Shown: piece by piece, positions 5,169-64,000 of the stretch
Layout: the number at the start of each line of letters is the position of its first letter
Numbering within the stretch: the first letter of the stretch is position 1
From: an uncultured Heliobacteriaceae bacterium
GTDB lineage: Bacteria > Acidobacteriota > Blastocatellia > RBC074
NCBI GenBank assembly: GCA_964631865.1
Contig: CAZWAK010000007.1
Span: forward strand, 1,934-65,933
DNA: 64,000 nucleotides
Direction: 5' to 3'
The notes under the pieces: model-generated
Databases searched by the model: none
The model's input: only the letters and a program-made list of their open reading frames with translations
Told to the model about the DNA's origin: nothing
Made by a program: the position numbers and the translations under genes

Positions 5169-6608
5169 ATGCCTCTTCCTGCAAAAATCGCGGCGCAATT
5201 ACGTGCCATCTGTGGTGACGATGCGGTCTTGACGGACGCGGCGGACTTGCTCGTCTACGAATACGACGCCGTCACGACGCACCGCGCCCAACCGCTTGCC
5301 GTCGTCTTTCCGCAAACGACCGAACATGTCGCGGGCGTCGTGCGCGTGCTGATGGAGCACGGCATTCCGTACGGCCCGCGCGGCGCAGGCACGGGCTTGA
5401 GTTCGGGCGCAATTGCGCTCGGTTGTGAGGCTGGCGAAGGCGCGGTCATCATTGAAATGGCGCGGATGAATCGCATTCTGGAAATTGACTTCGCCAATCA
5501 ACGCGCGATTGTGCAACCGGGCGTCGTGAATTTGCGGCTCTCGCAAGCCATCGCGTCGCAAGGCTATCACTACGCGCCTGACCCGTCGTCGCAAGCTTCC
5601 TGCACGCTCGGCGGCAACGTCGCGGAAAACTCCGGCGGCCCGCATTGCCTGAAATACGGAATGACGACGAATCACATTCTCGGCCTCGAAGTTGTGTTGC
5701 CCAACGGCAACATCGTGCAATTCGGCGGCGACGCGGCGGACACGATTGGCTACGATTTGCTCGGCACGTTTATCGGCAGCGAAGGCACGCTCGGCATCGC
5801 CACAAAAATCATCGTCAAACTCAGCCGCAACCCGCAAACCGTCGTGACGTTGCTCGCGGATTTTATGGACGTCAACGATGCGAGCCGCGCCGTGTCGGCG
5901 ATCATTGCCGCAGGCTTGCTGCCGGCGGCGTTGGAGATGATTGACCAGCCCACGATTCTGGCGGTCGAATCGTCCATTTACAAAGCGGGTTATGCCACCG
6001 ATGTCGCGGCGTGTTTGATTGTCGAGTTAGACGGCCTGCGCGCAGGGATTGATGGGCAGGCGCAGCGTGCGAAAGATATATGCCTCGAACACGGTGCGCG
6101 CGCGGTGCGAGAAGCGCGCGATGAACTCGAACGCAAAAAACTGTGGGCCGGACGCAAAGGCGCGTTCGGCGCGCTCGGTCGCGTCAGCCCCGATTTGTTT
6201 GTGCAAGACGCGGTTGTGCCACGCACGAAATTGCCCGAAGTGCTGGCCGGGATTTACAAGGTCGCGGAACGGCGCGGCATCCGCTTGTGCAACGTTTTCC
6301 ACGCGGGCGATGGCAATTTGCATCCGACCATCAACTTTGACGGACGCAATGCCGACGAAGTCGAGCGCGTGCATCTCGCCGGCAAAGAAATCATGAAGCT
6401 ATGCGTGGAAGCGGGTGGCTCAATCACGGGCGAGCACGGCGTCGGCGTAGACAAGATTGGTTATATGCCGATGATCTTCGATCAAGCGTCGCTGGATGCG
6501 ATGTTGGCCGTCAAAGAAGTCTTCAATCCGACGGGACTATGCAATCCAGGCAAAGCCATTCCGGCGCAAAAGATGTGTCGGGAGTATCGGAAGGCGGTGC
6601 AGGGGTAG
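5169..6608 (+). CDS. FAD-binding oxidoreductase, glycolate oxidase GlcD / D-lactate dehydrogenase family
   Basis: 479 aa with an FAD-binding PCMH domain (GAGTGLSSGA) and the C-terminal ...GSITGEHGVG... signature. Confidence 0.8.
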   Translation: MPLPAKIAAQLRAICGDDAVLTDAADLLVYEYDAVTTHRAQPLAVVFPQTTEHVAGVVRVLMEHGIPYGPRGAGTGLSSGAIALGCEAGEGAVIIEMARMNRILEIDFANQRAIVQPGVVNLRLSQAIASQGYHYAPDPSSQASCTLGGNVAENSGGPHCLKYGMTTNHILGLEVVLPNGNIVQFGGDAADTIGYDLLGTFIGSEGTLGIATKIIVKLSRNPQTVVTLLADFMDVNDASRAVSAIIAAGLLPAALEMIDQPTILAVESSIYKAGYATDVAACLIVELDGLRAGIDGQAQRAKDICLEHGARAVREARDELERKKLWAGRKGAFGALGRVSPDLFVQDAVVPRTKLPEVLAGIYKVAERRGIRLCNVFHAGDGNLHPTINFDGRNADEVERVHLAGKEIMKLCVEAGGSITGEHGVGVDKIGYMPMIFDQASLDAMLAVKEVFNPTGLCNPGKAIPAQKMCREYRKAVQG

Positions 6609-25559: not shown

Positions 25560-26372
25560 TCATTTGCGCCGCTTCTCGGTTCGGACTGGATTACGTGTGA
25601 GTAAGACACGATAGCGATAGAGGTCGCTGCGATAGAGAACCCGGACGTATTCGACGGGTTTTTCTTCGGCGCTATAAATCGTATTCTCGATGGACAACAA
25701 GGCCGAGCCGACCGGGATTTCCAGGCGTCCGGCCACATACGGATCGGCCAGCGCCGCCGTGATTTGTTGGATGCCTTTGTACAGGCGGAGGCCGATTTTG
25801 GTTTCCAATTGTTCCAGCACCGACCCCTGACTCAAGTCCTCTGCCGTCAGCCGCACCCCAATTTCGGCGGGGAAATAATTGACCAATAATCCGTACGGCT
25901 TGTCATCGAGCAAGCGCAAGCGTTCGACGCGCGAAACCGGATCGCCGAGTTGCAAGCCCAGCAACTTGGCGGCTTGGGCATCGGCTTTGATGAGGTTGAT
26001 GTCGAGCACTTTCACGGGCGTCTTTTGCCCCATCGCAATCAACTCATCCAGCGACCCCGTCAAGTTAATCACCCCTTCAAAGCGTCCCTCCACCAGGTTA
26101 GTGCGCGCGCGGCGTTCGGCAATAAACGTGCCGCGTCCCTGCCGTCGCTCAATTAACCCTTCGCCTGCCAGCGTGGCCAGAGCTTGCCGCACGGTGATGC
26201 GGCTGACGCCGTATTCGGCGATCAAATCGTCTTCGGTGGGCAACTGATCGCCCTGCGCATAGACGCCAGAGTTGATCTTTTCGCGCAAGAGGATTTCCAA
26301 TTGATAATAAAGCGGCACGCGCTTGGAAACGAACTGAGCGGGTGGTTTGGTCATAGAGATTTTTCGTGCCAT
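25560..26372 (-). CDS. GntR family (HutC subfamily, UTRA domain) transcriptional regulator
   Basis: An N-terminal wHTH ...LPTEDDLIAEYGVSRITVRQAL... and a UTRA-like C-terminal domain. Confidence 0.8.
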   Translation of the reverse strand: MARKISMTKPPAQFVSKRVPLYYQLEILLREKINSGVYAQGDQLPTEDDLIAEYGVSRITVRQALATLAGEGLIERRQGRGTFIAERRARTNLVEGRFEGVINLTGSLDELIAMGQKTPVKVLDINLIKADAQAAKLLGLQLGDPVSRVERLRLLDDKPYGLLVNYFPAEIGVRLTAEDLSQGSVLEQLETKIGLRLYKGIQQITAALADPYVAGRLEIPVGSALLSIENTIYSAEEKPVEYVRVLYRSDLYRYRVLLTRNPVRTEKRRK

Positions 26373-26518
26373 CTTTTACCTGCGTTGTGGAGCGGGTGAC
26401 AGACACGATTTTATTATAAAAAAATGACAAATGAAATATTATCGTTATATTGTCAGTATGATTGGAACCGATTATTGAGTTTGCCTGTCGCGGTTCGCGG
26501 TAGGACTCTATCCAGGAG

Positions 26519-28060
26519 ATGATTTTGATGAAACGTTTCGCATTCGTTTTTGCACTGACCTGCCTGTTGTTTTCGCTGCCGCTGGCGGCGCAATCCGTAG
26601 ACAAAATTCTCAAACAAGCTACCAAAGCGTTGGGCGATGAAAAAGCCTTGCGCAACCTGCGTTCGTGGCAGGTGCAGGGAACCGTCACGCGCCGTCGCGA
26701 TGGCGAAAGCGGCAAATACGAAGCCGCCGCACTCGCCCCTAATTTGTATTGGGGGCAATTCGATTTGCGCGGCTTAGAAACGAGCGTCGGCTACAGTGGC
26801 AAATCCGGCTGGTTCCGCGATGCGCGCAACGGCTTGCGCACAATGACCGGCGACGTGAGCCGCGATTTTCAGGCCGAAGCCGCGTTGCGCAACACGCGCT
26901 GGCTCGACGCGAAAAAGAACAAAGCCAAACTCGTCGCCGCGCCCGGCACGATCAATGGCAAAGCGGTGAACACCGTGACGATGACGACGGCGAAGAATGT
27001 CCGCCTCAAACTGCATTTCGACGCGGCTTCGGGCTTGCTCGTGCGCGAAGAAATTCCGGCGGGCGCACTGACGCGCATCTTTGACTACAGCGACTACAAG
27101 CCGGTCAACGGCCTTCAGTTTGCGCACACGATCACGACCACTGTCGGGCCGGACATCTACGACATCAAGCTTGACCGCATCGTGCCGAACGCGCCGCTCG
27201 AACGCGCTCGCTTTGACTTCCCCGTTGTGTCCAACGAGCTGCTGCCGAACATTGACGCTTTGTTGCAAGAGGTGAAAGCGAACGAAGACAAAGTGGACGA
27301 AATCCTCGAAAAATACACCTACACCGAAAAGCAAACCGACCGCGAATCCGATGCGTCAGGCCAACTGCGCGAAAAAAAATCCGAGACCTTTGAACTCACC
27401 TTTTACAAAGGCAATCGCATCAAACGACTGATTGAAAAGAACGGCAAACCGCTGGCAGCGAACGAACTCGAAAGTGAAAACAAACGCATTGAAAAGCGCG
27501 TGCGCGAGATTGAGAAGAAAGAAGCCGAGAAAGAAAAGAAAGCCAGCAAAGAACGCGAACTCGCGCAAGAGACCGCCGGAACGCCCGATGACGAAAACGG
27601 ACAACGCATTTCCATCGCCGATGTGTTGCGCGCCTCGAAGCTCACGAACCCGCGCCGCGAACGCTTCCGCAACCGTGATGTAATTGTCTTCGATTTCGAG
27701 CCACTGCCCGGCTACAAACCACAAAAACGCGTCGAGAAATTCTTCGGCAAAACGGCGGGCGCGATTTGGGTAGATGCAAACGACAAGCAAGTCGCCCGCG
27801 TCGAAGCCCGGCTGGTCGAAGCCTACAAAGTCGCGGGCGGGATGCTCGCGTCGCTGAAAGAAGGCGCGACGTTTGTGCTCGAACAAGACCGCGTCAACAA
27901 CGAAATCTGGCTACCAACGCGCGCCGACATCAACCTGTCCATAAAGGTGCTGATGGTCAAAGGCATCAATGCGAATTCGGTGATCGAGTACGGCAACTAC
28001 AAACGCTTCCAGGTGGATGCCGAAAAAGAAAAGCTGAAAGACCCGACCAAACCGCAATGA
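26519..28060 (+). CDS. Secreted hypothetical protein with a KE-rich coiled-coil linker between two LolA-like regions
   Basis: Signal peptide and a KRIEKRVREIEKKEAEKEKKASKERE coiled coil. The domain guess is weak. Confidence 0.5.
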   Translation: MILMKRFAFVFALTCLLFSLPLAAQSVDKILKQATKALGDEKALRNLRSWQVQGTVTRRRDGESGKYEAAALAPNLYWGQFDLRGLETSVGYSGKSGWFRDARNGLRTMTGDVSRDFQAEAALRNTRWLDAKKNKAKLVAAPGTINGKAVNTVTMTTAKNVRLKLHFDAASGLLVREEIPAGALTRIFDYSDYKPVNGLQFAHTITTTVGPDIYDIKLDRIVPNAPLERARFDFPVVSNELLPNIDALLQEVKANEDKVDEILEKYTYTEKQTDRESDASGQLREKKSETFELTFYKGNRIKRLIEKNGKPLAANELESENKRIEKRVREIEKKEAEKEKKASKERELAQETAGTPDDENGQRISIADVLRASKLTNPRRERFRNRDVIVFDFEPLPGYKPQKRVEKFFGKTAGAIWVDANDKQVARVEARLVEAYKVAGGMLASLKEGATFVLEQDRVNNEIWLPTRADINLSIKVLMVKGINANSVIEYGNYKRFQVDAEKEKLKDPTKPQ

Positions 28061-28230
28061 TGGCACGCATCCCGCAAGGCTACGTCGAAACCGCCGCCGG
28101 GCAATTGCATTATCGCAGCGCCGGAGACCGCACTGCGCCGTCCCTGTTGCTGTTACATCAAACCGCGAGTTCGTCTGCGATGGATGAAGCCTTGCAAAAA
28201 CCACATTCCACAATCCGATGCCAGCCGTAG
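28057..28230 (+). pseudogene. N-terminal fragment of an alpha/beta hydrolase (about 57 aa)
   Basis: MMARIPQGYVETAAGQLHYRSAGDRTAPSLLLLHQTASSSAM... then an early stop. It overlaps the next fragment on the other strand. Confidence 0.4.
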
Positions 28231-28593
28231 CCGCTCCTGTGGCACAACCGTCAATGCTGCGTGCGCGCGCTGCACAATATGTTCGACACTTTCGACCGGC
28301 GCTTCGGTGTCCAGATTGAGCAGACCGGGGATCACCGCTTTCCCGCCCGCGTGCGTCAGCCGTTCGGGCGTGTGACCGGGCTGTTCATATTCCAAACTGA
28401 TTTCGTCAATGTTCGTCGCGGCGAGCAAGGCTAATGCCTGTTCGTAGACCGGATTGACGCACTTCGCAGCAATGTTCTTCGAGTAGCCGTAACACATGTG
28501 AACAGCCGAGCGCGTCGTGATGCCGTGCAGCGTGCGATTGATCGCTTCGACGGCAAAGTCTTTGAGCTGCGGGCTGCTTGGGATCACCACCAC
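28153..28593 (-). pseudogene. C-terminal fragment of a cobalamin-independent methionine synthase (MetE-like / URO-D-like) gene
   Basis: A 146-aa ORF ...CYGYS...EISLEYE...DCGMW... resembles the MetE C-terminal region. No matching N-terminus upstream (an AT-rich patch instead). Confidence 0.4.
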
Positions 28594-28759
28594 TTGCTTA
28601 AAGTCCTGAACTGCCCCAAACCGAGTCCTTTATGATGCGGTTACCCTGAGTCATTATAGAAGTACAAGAATATTCTTGACGTTGTAATAATAACAAGACA
28701 ATATAAAACTGCTTCCTCTTTTTCAAAGGAAAAAGTTTTAAGCAGAGAGACAAAAGTTT

Positions 28760-29392
28760 TGCCGTGCAATCGCTCTTTTCATTTTTCATTGTGGACGATG
28801 GGGCGCGACGGCAAATGGCTCGCCAACTTTGCGAGCGAATCTACGAAAACGAGCAAGGGCCGCGTCACGATCAGCACCGAAGCGGTCAAAGCGGATGGCG
28901 GCGGGGTTCTGAACGGCGTCTTTCAGATCGTTCACGGCGGCCCTTCGGTCGGCGGCAAGCGGGTCAACGATGCGCGCATTCGTGCCGTGTCGTTCACGGG
29001 CGGCCTCGCAGGCGGACGCGCGATTGCCCGTGCTCGCGCGGAAGATTTCAAGCCCGCGCAACTCGAACTACGAACAAACTGCCGCGGCGGGCGCAACGTT
29101 TGCCGTCTACAATCCAACGGATGGCAGCGTCGTTGCACAAGCGGCACGAGGCGATGCCACAGATGCTGACCTGGCCGTGCAAGCGGCACGCGCAGCGTTT
29201 CCGCGTTGGGCGAATCTGCCTGCATCGGAACGCGAGCGGTTGCGGCTCAAAGCTGCCGATATATTCGAGCAGCGGAAAGATCGCTTTCCCGATTTGTTGA
29301 TGGACGAAAGCGGCTCGACCATTGCGAAAGCGCGCGACGAAGTGAATTTCACGCCGCAACTTCTGCGGGCGGCAGCGGGCGCAGCGGCGTAG
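28760..29392 (+). pseudogene. Scrambled aldehyde dehydrogenase fragments (a mid-protein fragment followed by an N-terminal fragment in another frame)
   Basis: ...VSFTGGLAGGRAIARARAEDFKPAQLEL... is the ALDH NAD-binding/catalytic region. Downstream, ...VYNPTDGSVVAQAARGDATDADLAVQAARAAFPRWANLPASERERL... is an ALDH N-terminus. Confidence 0.45.
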
Positions 29393-29489
29393 CTACAGCA
29401 TCAAAGCATTTACGGAACAAAAATGGATCAGCGTCGAAGTCAGTCCGCTGCCCATCACAGAACCACAAATCAATTGAAGGAACTTCGGG

Positions 29490-30707
29490 ATGAACGAACA
29501 AACACACAACAATCCGCGTCCGCTCGAAGGCGTGCGCATTTTAGAGATGGGACAATTGCTCGCGGGGCCGTTCGCTGCCGTCTTGCTCAGCTGGTTTGGC
29601 GCGGAAGTTATCAAGATCGAACCGCCCGGCATCGGCGATCCGCTGCGCAAATGGCGCAAGCTGCACCAGGGGACGGCGCTCTGGTGGTACATTCTGGGGC
29701 GCAACAAAAAATGCGTGACGCTCAATTTGAAAGACCCGCGCGGGCACGAGATCGTCAAGCAACTCGTCGGCAAAGTGGATGTGCTGATCGAAAACTTCAA
29801 ACCCGGCACGCTCGAAAAATGGGGGCTGGGTTATGAAGAACTCAAGCAGATCAACCCGCAATTGATTATGTCGCGCGTCTCCGGCTACGGGCAGACGGGG
29901 CCGTATTCATCGCGTCCTGGTTACGCGAGCGTGGCGGAAGGCTACGGCGGCTTTCGCTACATCAACGGCTTCCCGGATCGTCCGCCCGCACGACCGAATT
30001 TGAGTCTCGGCGACACGCTTGCCGGTTTGCATTCGGCGCTCGGCATTCTGATGGCGCTGTATCACCGCGATGCGAAGCAGACCGGGCAAGGCCAGATGAT
30101 TGACGTGGCGATTTACGAAGCCGTGTTCAATATGATGGAGTCCATGATTCCCGAATACGACAAGCTCGGCGAAATCCGCGAACGACAGGGAGCCAAGCTG
30201 TCGGGCATCGTGCCGACGAACACCTATCCGACCAAAGACGGCAAGTACGTCATCATCGGCGGCAACGGCGATTCGATTTATAAACGCTTGATGACGGCAG
30301 CCGGGCGCGAAGATTTGGCGAACGATCCGCGCCTCGCGCACAACGACGGGCGCGTCGAGCACGAAGCCGAAATTGACGCCGCGATTGAAGCGTGGACGCG
30401 GGCCAATAATTACGACGACATTTACAAAATCCTCGACGCAGCGGGCGTGCCCGTCGGCCCGATTTACAACGCGGCGGATATGGTCAACGACCCGCACTTC
30501 ATCGCGCGCGGTTTGTTTGAAGACGCGGACATCGGCAACGGCGAAACGGTCAAGCTGCCGACGTTTGTGCCCAAGTTGAGCGCGACGCCCGGCGGGACGC
30601 AGTGGATCGGGCCGCCGCTCGGCGCGCATAACCGAGAAGTGTATTGCGAGATGTTAGGAATGAGTGAACCGGAATTTCAGAGCTTGCAACACGATGGCGT
30701 GATTTAG
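29490..30707 (+). CDS. CoA-transferase family III (CaiB/BaiF)
   Basis: ...GVRILEMGQLLAGPFAAVLLSWFGAEVIKIEPPG... and ...GNGDSIYKRLM.... Confidence 0.85.
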   Translation: MNEQTHNNPRPLEGVRILEMGQLLAGPFAAVLLSWFGAEVIKIEPPGIGDPLRKWRKLHQGTALWWYILGRNKKCVTLNLKDPRGHEIVKQLVGKVDVLIENFKPGTLEKWGLGYEELKQINPQLIMSRVSGYGQTGPYSSRPGYASVAEGYGGFRYINGFPDRPPARPNLSLGDTLAGLHSALGILMALYHRDAKQTGQGQMIDVAIYEAVFNMMESMIPEYDKLGEIRERQGAKLSGIVPTNTYPTKDGKYVIIGGNGDSIYKRLMTAAGREDLANDPRLAHNDGRVEHEAEIDAAIEAWTRANNYDDIYKILDAAGVPVGPIYNAADMVNDPHFIARGLFEDADIGNGETVKLPTFVPKLSATPGGTQWIGPPLGAHNREVYCEMLGMSEPEFQSLQHDGVI

Positions 30708-60425: not shown

Positions 60426-61802
60426 TCAATTTACTCCCCTAGCAAAGCCCCGCCTATTCGCCACCGGCACAAATCTGATTCGTTGTCTTTTGCGCTTCAG
60501 TCTTACAAATGGCCGGATAATTATTCGTAGAAATCCAGGGCCACCAGTAAGAACTAAAATGCCGTATGCAACTATATGATGTCGAATTGCCGTGCCCCAA
60601 TTGGCAGTTCCCATCGCCCACAAAAACTCAAGGCTAAAATAGCAGATTATTAGAAAGCCCCATTGACTCCGGCGCTCGCCCGAAGCGTGATACCAGGTGG
60701 CCAAGGCGTGAAAGATCAATAGTAATCGCAGATAACCTTCAAACGCTCCATAAATATCAACTGTACTGGAAATCTGCCAAGGGAATGGAGCCAGCATATA
60801 CATAGTAAATACCCAAGCGGCAGAAGGAATAAAAGCAGTAAGTGAAGACGTATCGAGCGTTCCCCCATAGCTGGCTCGGTCATAGCTTGTTGTTGTTCGA
60901 TCCCGATAGACTCCAGCATACTCTGCTCCTTCGCCAGACATTAAGGCTCTGGCCGCTCCCCCTGTGTCGCTGGCAATCAAAAACCAAGTCAATAAGATTC
61001 CTCCGAGCAACCCTACCCCCGCAAGTTTGGCTATCAAGCTTCGCCCTTCCCACCTCTTCAAATTGAAACGCAGCCCCCAAAAGAAACCTAAACAGATCAA
61101 AAATAGGGCGTATATGAATAACCCATTATGAAAGACCCCTAACGCGAACCCTGACCCACTCAGCATTATCATTTTCACTAATGTAGGCTTTTTGCGCAGC
61201 GACAAACCGAAATATGCGACCATCAAAAAGAATAGCATCTGTAGTGACTCGCGCATGGTGATAGAAGTGAAGATGATTGCTGAAGGCAGTAAGCCATAAA
61301 TAAGAACCAGCCCGATTTGCCATCTTGCAATACCAAGCAATCTTGCCATTTTTATAATCACCAAGCAGGACATAACATAGGCCAAAATTGATAATTCCTG
61401 GCCGAGCAGTTTAGAATCACCAAATAAGCGATAGAAAAACGAAAGAAACTGGATATATGCACTACTCCCTGCCTCCATACCGCCAAACTCAGCAAACCAC
61501 ATAGGCTGAATTGAATGTGACATGGTGACAGCATTCTCGTGGAAAGTGACAGCATCCATATCAGCGCCGATTAAGATGAAGTAATAAGCGTTGACGAACG
61601 AGGTAAGGTGTCTAGCTGATAAAGCGAGAAAAGTAACGGCTAACAACCTCCAATCGCTATGGATATCCTCATCTGCAAACAGAGTGAAATAGGTTCCGTA
61701 AAGCACGACTAAGGCTGCACGGTCGGCGGATAGAAAACTAAAGAAAACTATAATCATAAATGCAAGGGATAGAATACTAACTTCTGATTTACCTAAGATC
61801 AT
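60426..61802 (-). CDS. Polytopic membrane protein, putative O-antigen/EPS repeat-unit polymerase (Wzy-like)
   Basis: More than 10 predicted TM segments, in the middle of a GT/methyltransferase cluster, low GC. The assignment is by context only. Confidence 0.45.
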   Translation of the reverse strand: MILGKSEVSILSLAFMIIVFFSFLSADRAALVVLYGTYFTLFADEDIHSDWRLLAVTFLALSARHLTSFVNAYYFILIGADMDAVTFHENAVTMSHSIQPMWFAEFGGMEAGSSAYIQFLSFFYRLFGDSKLLGQELSILAYVMSCLVIIKMARLLGIARWQIGLVLIYGLLPSAIIFTSITMRESLQMLFFLMVAYFGLSLRKKPTLVKMIMLSGSGFALGVFHNGLFIYALFLICLGFFWGLRFNLKRWEGRSLIAKLAGVGLLGGILLTWFLIASDTGGAARALMSGEGAEYAGVYRDRTTTSYDRASYGGTLDTSSLTAFIPSAAWVFTMYMLAPFPWQISSTVDIYGAFEGYLRLLLIFHALATWYHASGERRSQWGFLIICYFSLEFLWAMGTANWGTAIRHHIVAYGILVLTGGPGFLRIIIRPFVRLKRKRQRIRFVPVANRRGFARGVN

Positions 61803-61919
61803 ATTTCTTATTCAATCTATCAACCAACTTTGTAGTTATGTGATTACACAAAGTAAATGTTGATGGCTAAATACTGCATTAAACTCCGGACTGCAAGACA
61901 ACTCCATTTGCTATACTGA

Positions 61920-63062
61920 TTAAAGTAGCTGGCTCAGGGCCTGTTCAGTTTTTATAAAGAGTGTCTCTATACTAAAATTTTCAGCAATCTGGTGCCGCAC
62001 AATATTTTTTTCAGGTAAGGTTCCTCTTGCAACACTTAATATCGCCTCGGCCAGTAATACGGGATTACGTGCTGGAACCACGATACCAACGGAACCGACA
62101 ATATTTGACGAATCTCCTACATCGGTCACAATACAGGAAACACCACAGGCCATCGCTTCCCCAATGCTATTTGAAAAACCTTCTGTAATCGAAGAGGAAA
62201 CCGCAATATCCAGCGAATTATAGACTGCGGCCATATCGTCCCGAGCCTCACTCCAAATTAAGCGCGAACCTAGCATTTGTGCAGCAGCTAAATTTTTCAT
62301 TTCTGATACATATTCCGGACTTCCATTACCAACACACACAAACCGCAATTTGGCGTTTTGCTGCGCCGTCGAGAGTGCTGCCTGTAAGAATGTAGGATGA
62401 TCTTTCATCGGGTCAATTCGAGCGACTAATCCAATCAATATTTCGTCTTCCTGAATGCCCCATTCAAGTCTGAGTTTTTTTCTCAAGGCGTCGTTTGGTG
62501 AAAACTTCCGGATATCTATGCCATTATATATGGTAATTATTTTGCTCCTCGGAAATTGACGGGTAATAAGATGACGATAACCAGCCTGCGAATTTACGAT
62601 GATCAGATCCGCCCAACGAGCCAAATATTGCTCTAATTGACTAATGAATCGCTCTAACCAGTCATAGCGGCTCAAATCCATGTCAGAGGCGCGAATTCCC
62701 CAAACTATTTTCATTTTTGGGGAAAAAGCTTTAATGAGTACAGCCAAAATATTGGCAACTGCCAAATAGCTATGTAAAATTGCAGGCTTCTCTTGGCGAA
62801 TTAATAAAATCAGCCTGCAAATGAATAACAACACATCCCAGCGCCCTCTTTTCTGTAGGCAATGCACTGGAATACAATTACTAACTAGTTCTGAATCAAA
62901 TTCCCCTTTATAAAAAGTAGCAACAGTTACAGGCCACCTTTTTAAGGTGAGGCCTTTTGTTAACAAGACTAACTGTCTTTCTGCCCCCCCCCGCTCTAAA
63001 GCGCGCGAGAGAAAAAGAATTTTCTTCTGAGCTATTGACATGCTATTACAATTTCTCGTCAC
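61920..63062 (-). CDS. Glycosyltransferase family 4 carrying a G9 homopolymeric tract in codons about 19-22
   Basis: ...[23 protein letters not shown]... GT4 C-terminus. The likely start is MSIAQKK at 63041. Confidence 0.8.
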   Translation of the reverse strand: MTRNCNSMSIAQKKILFLSRALERGGAERQLVLLTKGLTLKRWPVTVATFYKGEFDSELVSNCIPVHCLQKRGRWDVLLFICRLILLIRQEKPAILHSYLAVANILAVLIKAFSPKMKIVWGIRASDMDLSRYDWLERFISQLEQYLARWADLIIVNSQAGYRHLITRQFPRSKIITIYNGIDIRKFSPNDALRKKLRLEWGIQEDEILIGLVARIDPMKDHPTFLQAALSTAQQNAKLRFVCVGNGSPEYVSEMKNLAAAQMLGSRLIWSEARDDMAAVYNSLDIAVSSSITEGFSNSIGEAMACGVSCIVTDVGDSSNIVGSVGIVVPARNPVLLAEAILSVARGTLPEKNIVRHQIAENFSIETLFIKTEQALSQLL

Positions 63063-63078
63063 TCTTTCCTAATCAACC

Positions 63079-63882
63079 TTATTTAACTCCGACACACATG
63101 ACATACGTTGCCAGTTGCTGATTAGACTTTATATTGCCGTTTATTTTCTCAAGCAACCTTACTAGGTACGAGCCACGCCTTAGTAAGGCTATAATGGGAA
63201 ATGTGATAATAAAAGCTAAACTGTTAGTCTTTACCCCACTCAAGTTACACATGCCAAAGTTTAGGGGTATTAAATAGTCGCATGTCAATACATTAATACC
63301 TGAGTCATAGTGCGCACGCTTTAGGTCTTCAGTTGTAAGCGGCACGTGGATATCGTAAACTCGCCGATTGGCAGTTTTTTGCGCCCAACCAATTATACCA
63401 GTCATATTCGGGATTATGGTTATAACTATACCTCCTTTTTTCATATAACGCATAACAGCTTGTATATATCGAGATGTATCTTCAAAATGCTCTGCCACCC
63501 CCATTGATAGAACAACATCGAATACCTCAATTAGATTATCCGGCGGGTGAAACAAATCTGCACAAATAATACTACCTTGTACGCCCGCCCGATATAAGAT
63601 TTGGCGCTCTTGCTCGCAACCTATTTCTGAGTAATCGATTCCACTAACTTCAAACCCATACTCTTTGGCAAAATAGGGAAGCCAGGACGAGCAAGCGCAT
63701 CCGATCTCTAACAAAGTTGCCCCTTTCATTTGCCTTCCTCTGAATATGTCCTGAAAACATTCATGTAGTTTTATATTTACATAGTTTTTACTACTTAAAT
63801 TATAAGGATCAACTGGTTTAATATCGGCAACAGTATTCCAATTGGCATCCCAGTAATCCTTTCCCGCTTTATCTATGTTCAT
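63079..63882 (-). CDS. Class I SAM-dependent methyltransferase
   Basis: ...LLEIGCACSSW... motif I. AT-rich gene. Confidence 0.7.
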   Translation of the reverse strand: MNIDKAGKDYWDANWNTVADIKPVDPYNLSSKNYVNIKLHECFQDIFRGRQMKGATLLEIGCACSSWLPYFAKEYGFEVSGIDYSEIGCEQERQILYRAGVQGSIICADLFHPPDNLIEVFDVVLSMGVAEHFEDTSRYIQAVMRYMKKGGIVITIIPNMTGIIGWAQKTANRRVYDIHVPLTTEDLKRAHYDSGINVLTCDYLIPLNFGMCNLSGVKTNSLAFIITFPIIALLRRGSYLVRLLEKINGNIKSNQQLATYVMCVGVK

Positions 63883-64000
63883 TATTTTCTTTTCTCAAGC
63901 TTTGAATACTAAAACAGTCCATCTTAATTTTCTTGGCGACAAAATAGTAACGCGATGTTTATTTAGGTGAGGTTCGGACTATATACAGTACCTATTAAGC

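Follow-up and report, generated by a model that had tools for sequence, protein, structure and literature searches.

Within the 64-kb window analysed here (the whole stretch of 64,000 nucleotides), positions 28057-29477 lie between an intact hypothetical-protein gene, h511, and an intact family III CoA-transferase gene. This segment is best explained as the leftovers of at least six genes from two adjacent, once-intact gene groups in an Acidobacteria-like genome, reduced by several deletions, with the surviving islands keeping their original order and orientation; we give this reading a probability of roughly 0.8. An earlier reading of the same letters (the original prediction) had proposed the scar of a deletion or rearrangement. 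The scar is one of deletion, and rearrangement finds no support, as every block follows the order of the intact loci in two relatives. This is ordinary bacterial gene and operon decay, unusually well resolved, and not a scrambled locus.

We listed the pieces by six-frame translation and open reading frame (ORF) listing of 27990-29520 and aligned them to related genomes, as had been proposed with the original prediction; two loci, L045 for the left half and L035 for the right half, provide intact arrangements. Each of the six remnants amounts to 7-35% of the length of its parent gene and is 78-87% identical in nucleotide sequence to the intact genes of the relatives (Table 1). The intact flanks occur in the same order in these relatives, with GntR and h511 on the left in L045 and the CoA-transferase on the right in L035 and L033. 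Every piece named in the original prediction exists, but its inventory missed an acyl-CoA-dehydrogenase (ACAD)-fold fragment and a C-terminal piece of an aldehyde dehydrogenase (ALDH). No paralogues of the fragments were found elsewhere in the window, so they were not copied from intact genes nearby. A working enzyme cannot be encoded by any of the remnant ORFs: essential regions are gone, with ALDH1 reduced to residues 200-254, ALDH2 to residues 16-121 and 455-486, the MetE-like protein lacking residues 1-211 and the hydrolase ending at residue 46. The region that carries the catalytic residues of ALDHs thus falls outside the retained ALDH pieces.

The right half is explained by a five-gene catabolic operon. 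The CoA-transferase of the window belongs to a 90% identity cluster of 25 members, one of which (P0025, 92.8% identical) sits on the JGI contig L035 after four intact genes. In order, the L035 operon encodes an ACAD-fold flavoenzyme (431 amino acids), a first ALDH (ALDH1, 485), a FAD_binding_3 monooxygenase (401), a second ALDH (ALDH2, 486) and the family III CoA-transferase (405). L036 has the same arrangement from the 3′ end of ALDH1 onward, and L033 and L034 carry the monooxygenase, ALDH2 and CoA-transferase genes; the CoA-transferases of these four loci are 92-94% identical to that of the window. The more distant L026 and L028 have ACAD followed by ALDH1, with further genes ahead of the second ALDH in L028. 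Aligned to the window by blastn, L035 gives five collinear blocks on the same strand that span 28649-30705, and the second reference lineage, L033/L034, gives the same ALDH2 endpoints. The net losses relative to L035 are 352, 1373, 2089 and 1019 bp, which take 5672 bp down to 841 bp.

These blocks resolve the coding remnants one by one. The ACAD piece came to light when the ALDH pieces were combined into one query for a protein search, which returned ACAD-fold proteins as well as ALDHs; window 28796-28920 encodes MGRDGKWLANFASESTKTSKGRVTISTEAV...LNGV. The ALDH1 piece that follows reads NGVFQIVHGGPSVGG... and is 88% identical to P0001. The N-terminal ALDH2 piece also matches L033 832-1148 (84.5%). 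Past the stop codon at 29390-29392, another frame (29391-29477) reads SYSIKAFTEQKWISVEV..., which is an ALDH C-terminus: it matches L033 2149-2236 at 87.5%, and 17 of 24 residues are identical to the C-terminus of ALDH2. The original prediction had placed its two ALDH fragments in different frames and in the wrong order. The different frames are there, but the order is correct and nothing is scrambled, because the pieces match different paralogues that lie ALDH1 then ALDH2 in the intact L035 operon: the middle piece has 92% identity to ALDH1 but 36.5% to ALDH2, identity of the N-terminal piece to ALDH2 is 77%, and the two paralogues are only 33% identical to one another. A single-gene origin for both pieces failed on this assignment.

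On this basis, an operon of five genes (ACAD-fold flavoenzyme, ALDH1, FAD monooxygenase, ALDH2 and CoA-transferase) would have lost its monooxygenase gene entirely and kept some 40-105 codons of each of the other three upstream genes, while an upstream control block, which forms the core of an AT-rich patch, and the last gene would have come through intact. The CoA-transferase is the survivor that the original prediction had suspected, the last gene of the ancestral operon and still under purifying selection. A decayed former operon had likewise been suggested, with the hydrolase and ALDH as its members; the operon decay stands, but the hydrolase belongs to a separate upstream group (h511-DUF420-hydrolase in L045). 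No NCBIfam equivalog reached its curated cut-off for any of the intact operon proteins. The pathway they served had probably become dispensable.

The left half is explained by the L045 locus, the contig of P0039. Read in the orientation of the window, L045 has GntR (-), h511 (+), a DUF420 gene (+), a 262-residue hydrolase (+) and a convergent 359-residue MetE-like gene (-), beyond which lie a small ORF, an MFS transporter and other genes. In the window, a 57-codon forward ORF (28057-28230) begins with an ATG that overlaps the TGA of the 513-codon upstream gene (ATGA), bearing out the predicted hydrolase N-terminus on the upstream stop codon; the remnant is 78.6% identical to residues 3-44 of the L045 Abhydrolase_1/6 protein (tblastn) and 75% identical to P0129. 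It ends ahead of the nucleophile region, and the L045 hydrolase has FGHHTGA near residue 100. The predicted MetE-like fragment on the opposite strand is equally real: the 146-codon reverse-strand ORF at 28153-28593 matches Pfam Meth_synt_2 at positions 215-303 of 324 (E=6e-7), and the remnant within it is 85.6% identical in amino acids and 80.9% in nucleotides to L045 4073-4448. A search with a composite of the two pieces returned full-length MetE-like proteins of about 360 amino acids (up to 86% identity) and alpha/beta hydrolases of 261-273 amino acids. The predicted overlap of hydrolase and MetE-like pieces holds for the read-through ORFs, but the true homology segments abut at 28194|28195.

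The L045 blocks are collinear with the window, and 826 bp net are gone between hydrolase codon 46 and MetE-like codon 336. The hydrolase and the convergent MetE-like gene would thus have lost these 826 bp between them, and the 5′ half of the MetE-like gene would have gone together with an unknown amount of DNA beyond it. A scan of metagenomes with h511 was uninformative for the hydrolase and MetE-like side, as it found only relatives at 55-65% identity with a histidine kinase after the gene.

The junctions between islands differ from one another. The hydrolase::MetE-like junction (28194|28195) has a 2-bp overlap and the ALDH1::ALDH2 junction (29069|29070) is blunt. The ACAD::ALDH1 junction lies inside a shared motif of 9-10 bp, GAACGGCGT, which encodes LNGV in one gene and PNGV in the other, and yields an in-frame fusion, an outcome expected by chance one time in three. 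The intra-ALDH2 junction falls in an imperfect 18-bp similarity (29369-29386) and has an additional 1-nt indel, which is why the C-terminal ALDH2 piece is out of frame. In classical lacI deletion work, spontaneous deletions reportedly occurred at short direct homologies. Spontaneous deletions in bacteria usually show such homologies where they end (Sun et al. 2012, PMC3411829), and the ACAD::ALDH1 (9-10 bp, exact) and intra-ALDH2 (18 bp, imperfect) junctions resemble them; the two junctions with overlaps of only 0-2 bp do not, and short-homology slippage therefore cannot explain all of them. The deletions probably arose through ordinary illegitimate, short-homology recombination. Piecemeal loss of dead genes is what deletional bias is expected to produce (Kuo & Ochman 2009, PMC2817411; Kuo & Ochman 2010, PMC2916853; Danneels et al. 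2018, PMC6054270).

The decay is recent. We estimated ratios of nonsynonymous to synonymous substitution (dN/dS) by the Nei-Gojobori method against relatives at dS 0.5-0.9 and looked in the remnants for relaxed selection, which would move the ratio towards 1. It was not seen; the combined ratio is close to those of the intact neighbours (Table 1), and the native frames of all islands are free of internal stops. The divergence from the relatives must therefore have accumulated mostly while the genes still worked, which makes inactivation recent on that scale, at a very rough estimate in the final fifth or so of the branch leading to this lineage. As such pieces could not fold into their parent enzymes, the low ratios reflect recent inactivation and not retained function.

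Table 1. Features of the decayed segment and its flanks, with blastn matches in the reference loci and dN/dS
Feature	Window position	Strand	Match in reference locus	dN/dS	Remarks
h511, intact 513-aa secreted hypothetical protein	26519-28060	+	L045 8384-5909 to window 25594-28054 (GntR and h511)	0.079	left boundary of scar; 91% aa and 82.5% nt identity to 511-aa L045 gene
Alpha/beta-hydrolase remnant, residues 1-46 of ~262	28057-28194	+	L045 5392-5280 to window 28076-28188 (residues 3-44), 84%	0.12	nucleophile region gone
MetE-like (Meth_synt_2) remnant, residues 212-336 of 359	28195-28569	-	L045 4448-4073 to window 28194-28569	0.09	lacks N-terminal 211 and C-terminal 23 residues
Unassigned stretch between MetE-like remnant and upstream block	28570-28648				79 bp
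Conserved upstream block of former operon	28649-28707	+	L035 2329-2387, 91.5%		54/59 identical; 32-90 bp upstream of ACAD start codon in L035
AT-rich stretch, possibly degenerate 5′ untranslated region and ACAD start region	28708-28795				88 bp
ACAD-fold flavoenzyme remnant, ~residues 137-178 of 431	28796-28920	+	L035 2828-2952, 80.6%	0.10	86% aa identity to P0005
ALDH1 remnant, ~residues 200-254 of 485	28907-29069	+	L035 4312-4474, 87.1%	0.08	fused in frame to ACAD remnant; Pfam Aldedh 180-236 of 461
ALDH2 N-terminal remnant, residues 16-121 of 486	29070-29386	+	L035 6564-6880, 77.9%	0.14	Pfam Aldedh 5-104 of 461, E=1.7e-22; other frame than ALDH1 piece
ALDH2 C-terminal remnant, ~residues 455-486	29369-29477	+	L035 7881-9216 to window 29369-30705 (with CoA-transferase), 87.1%	0.21	stop codon 29475-29477; out of frame with N-terminal piece
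Intact family III CoA-transferase	29490-30707	+	within the preceding block	0.093	Pfam CoA_transf_3 full length, E=6e-122; 92.8% aa identity to L035 orthologue
All remnants combined				0.118	bootstrap 0.084-0.174

Between the two halves lies the AT-rich patch that the original prediction had pointed out. It is real, with a GC content of 34.8% over 28600-28760, but the surrounding DNA is less GC-rich than the 60% then assumed (window mean, 54.5%). The patch is one of three stretches in the window with at most 36% GC in 160-nt windows; the other two are at 61671-61991 and 63691-63991. Judged by homology, its core is the native upstream block of the operon rather than foreign DNA. The identity of this block to L035 (54 of 59 positions) exceeds that at four-fold sites of the CoA-transferase (72.5%; P=3e-4), and the sequence is unalignable on both of its flanks. 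The block contains a -35-like hexamer, TTGACG (28676-28681), a 17-nt spacer and CAATAT (28699-28704), and L035 has TTGACA, 17 nt and CAATAT. A perfect 14-bp palindrome, CAAGAATATTCTTG, at 28665-28678 (L035 2345-2358) overlaps the -35-like hexamer. It has no second copy in the window, L035 has kept it too, and it makes a candidate operator. The block is therefore suggestive of the operon's promoter and operator, and the CoA-transferase may now be transcribed from this retained putative promoter about 0.8 kb upstream. A terminator scan between the block and the CoA-transferase gave counts at chance level. RNA folding of 28695-28800 was no better than that of shuffled sequences (z=-0.36), and an Rfam scan of 27500-30000 found no RNA family.

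Several points weigh against the two-group deletion reading or against parts of it. The reference loci are relatives at the dS values given above and no direct ancestors, and every deletion size is counted against them. This lineage may have had an ancestral operon unlike theirs; the distant L028, for example, has a PEP-mutase/ICL-like gene between ALDH1 and the monooxygenase. On the left, loss and gain of the DUF420 gene between h511 and the hydrolase appear indistinguishable, because the sequence around the hydrolase start has diverged and there is no helpful outgroup. Comparison with the fetched loci identified no origin for 28570-28648 and 28708-28795: the former has no match in those loci or in the rest of the window (blastn-short) and 23% ungapped identity to L035 at the same offset, and the latter has 33-42% ungapped identity to L035 and a weak MAFFT alignment. 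A consensus promoter scan did not report the forward-strand site in the upstream block, because its -10 element matches at only three of six positions. Moreover, conservation of the block reflects past constraint, as it does for the dead coding islands, and need not imply present function. Finally, the 146-codon MetE-like ORF is on record solely from the 87.8-kb NCBI contig, and we found no independent contig that covers 28593-28739. From the end of the MetE-like remnant at 28569 to about 28739, where the two halves meet, the sequence is backed by no second assembly, and their adjacency thus rests on one assembly.

This last point bears on an explanation by assembly artefact, in which a chimeric or collapsed contig made some or all of the junctions unreal and, in particular, misjoined the two halves within the AT-rich patch. 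The original prediction had flagged the same spot for a possible misjoin. Three Logan contigs (runs SRR12808459, SRR12808457 and SRR12816583), produced by another assembler, match the window at 100% identity from 28739 or 28756 onward, two of them reaching 32684 and one 31245; all three therefore end inside the patch, a point in favour of the artefact. Yet these same per-run assemblies cross the ACAD::ALDH1, ALDH1::ALDH2 and intra-ALDH2 junctions, and Logan also records h511, GntR and the 57-codon ORF that spans the hydrolase::MetE-like junction, so the misjoin check proposed at the outset comes out well there, with four junctions reproduced overall, and leaves 28593-28739 without independent cover. 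In addition, the upstream block belongs to the right-hand operon by homology and yet lies to the left of the Logan ends, which means that, for at least 50-100 bp past those ends, the window contig continues the right half correctly. We therefore consider an artefact unlikely, although 28593-28739 may still hide a misjoin or strain heterogeneity. The identity of the Logan contigs to the window in three runs also speaks against the presence, in the samples concerned, of a second allele that is nearly identical but intact.

The ends of the three Logan contigs coincide or nearly do so (28739 or 28756 on the left; 32684 on the right in two). This points to branch points in the assembly graph from strain variation, or to a systematic loss of coverage, rather than to random breaks.

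A different alternative accepts the deletions and questions their neutrality. Selected streamlining or a single complex event (replication template switching with several breakpoints, or a selected series of deletions) could have set the regulated operon promoter beside the one gene still needed, the CoA-transferase, leaving a functional arrangement and not neutral debris. The upstream block and the last gene were both kept while some 85% of the intervening DNA went; the breakpoints are all forward and collinear, several with short homology; the decay is recent, its sole 1-nt indel standing beside the intra-ALDH2 junction; and no terminator-like signal above chance separates the block from the CoA-transferase. 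Serial neutral deletions under bacterial deletion bias, however, would be expected to give the same outcome (PMC2817411, PMC2916853). About 780 bp without any use still separate the putative promoter from the CoA-transferase, the promoter status of the block is itself putative, and decay also reached the left-hand genes, which have no relation to the operon, as is expected of a locally dispensable region and not of targeted remodelling. Selected streamlining thus strikes us as improbable. We are slightly more doubtful of its most specific form, in which one forward template-switching event or a rapidly selected series re-wired the putative promoter and operator onto the CoA-transferase and turned a five-gene operon into a streamlined one-gene unit. 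Were this so, an in-frame ACAD::ALDH1 fusion in another locus, L027, would hint at recurrent remodelling of this operon. In L027 624-1766 (Logan SRR29331299), ACAD residues 29-107 run in frame into ALDH1 residues 156-457 within a 405-codon ORF (P0006), with another breakpoint and in another organism; the fusion reflects either a separate deletion event in this operon or a chimeric contig.

The excision of a mobile element, which the original prediction had offered as a possible cause, finds little room. An insertion sequence (IS), island or prophage that came and left, or a foreign AT-rich insert, would have caused adjacent deletions. IS elements commonly cause such deletions, the patch is AT-rich against the window mean, 167 bp of it are without an identified origin, and an IS605-family element splits a distant ALDH homologue in another locus, L029. 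Against this, the core of the patch is orthologous to the native region upstream of the operon in L035. A Pfam scan of ten neighbouring ORFs (20.5-40 kb) gave no transposase or integrase domain; these ORFs include a shikimate-pathway fusion, a PLP decarboxylase, GntR, a GH5/PA14 protein, a TonB-dependent receptor and a GMC oxidoreductase. There are no terminal inverted or direct repeats beyond matches of chance size, no other copy of the patch in the window or the fetched loci, and no Rfam match. Within the window, a mobile-element scar is therefore very improbable. Least credible of all, to the point of being negligible, is that a single ALDH gene was broken and its pieces reordered by an inversion or transposition-type event: both pieces do match one Pfam family, with profile positions 180-236 upstream of 5-104, but they are orthologous to different paralogues, two ALDH genes occupy that position in L035 and also in the distant L028, and all blocks are on the same strand and collinear.

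The L029 locus was also considered as a similar remnant in its own right and was rejected, as an unrelated gene split by an IS605-family element. At L029 8001-12042, the ALDH gene is split into pieces of 165 and 349 amino acids, with an IS605-family OrfB/TnpB gene, a 201-codon ORF and a helix-turn-helix gene between them. In L045, a DUF420 membrane-protein gene of 158 codons (5411-5887) separates h511 from the hydrolase; the window lacks it (28055-28075), and there the start codon of the hydrolase overlaps the stop codon of h511. For h511 itself, neither Pfam nor NCBIfam gave a family.

The surroundings of the CoA-transferase vary widely among its relatives. L030-L032, with CoA-transferases about 92% identical to that of the window, were tried as references and dropped because their upstream context is wholly different (hydantoinase, isochorismatase). 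Across L030-L037, all with CoA-transferases at least 90% identical, the neighbourhoods differ sharply: in some relatives hydantoinase A/B and isochorismatase genes lie upstream and an HMGL-like lyase gene downstream, in others ALDH2 takes the upstream place and the lyase is again downstream, and in others still the five-gene operon is complete but the lyase is missing. Directly past the CoA-transferase stop codon, synteny with the window stops. A scan of genome contigs with the CoA-transferase found as its closest genome an Acidobacteria metagenome-assembled genome (MAG; 79%) without upstream synteny. The neighbourhood of this CoA-transferase looks like a rearrangement hotspot.

These results have practical implications. 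The source collection records coding sequences on remnants (the 57-residue hydrolase start, the 146-residue MetE-like piece and a 122-residue ALDH piece). These ought to be annotated as pseudogene fragments, and the enzymes should not be counted in any metabolic reconstruction of this MAG. Two lessons of method follow: fragments of one family in a seemingly wrong order can be neighbouring paralogues, and an AT-rich patch within a scar can be a native promoter region and not foreign DNA. Decay of two gene groups by several deletions gives here a clean and datable view of how an operon was lost in an apparently free-living, soil-type lineage, with defined breakpoints and with the control region and terminal gene kept; it is a useful example, although an unsurprising one.

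One close comparison is with the intact operon in L035 and L036 and the related clusters L026 and L028. The islands of the window are orthologous to it (78-92% identity), in the same order and with the same terminal CoA-transferase, but the window keeps whole only the upstream block and that last gene. As a process, the locus resembles the erosion of bacterial pseudogenes under deletional bias (PMC2817411, PMC2916853, PMC6054270), with its piecemeal deletion, its preserved parental order and orientation, and young pseudogenes whose low dN/dS records a functional past. It differs in packing at least five breakpoints, six genes and two transcription units into 1.4 kb, and in being dominated by deletions of 0.35-2.1 kb, whereas those papers mostly studied small indels. 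The organism, too, appears to be free-living and Acidobacteria-like, and not host-restricted.

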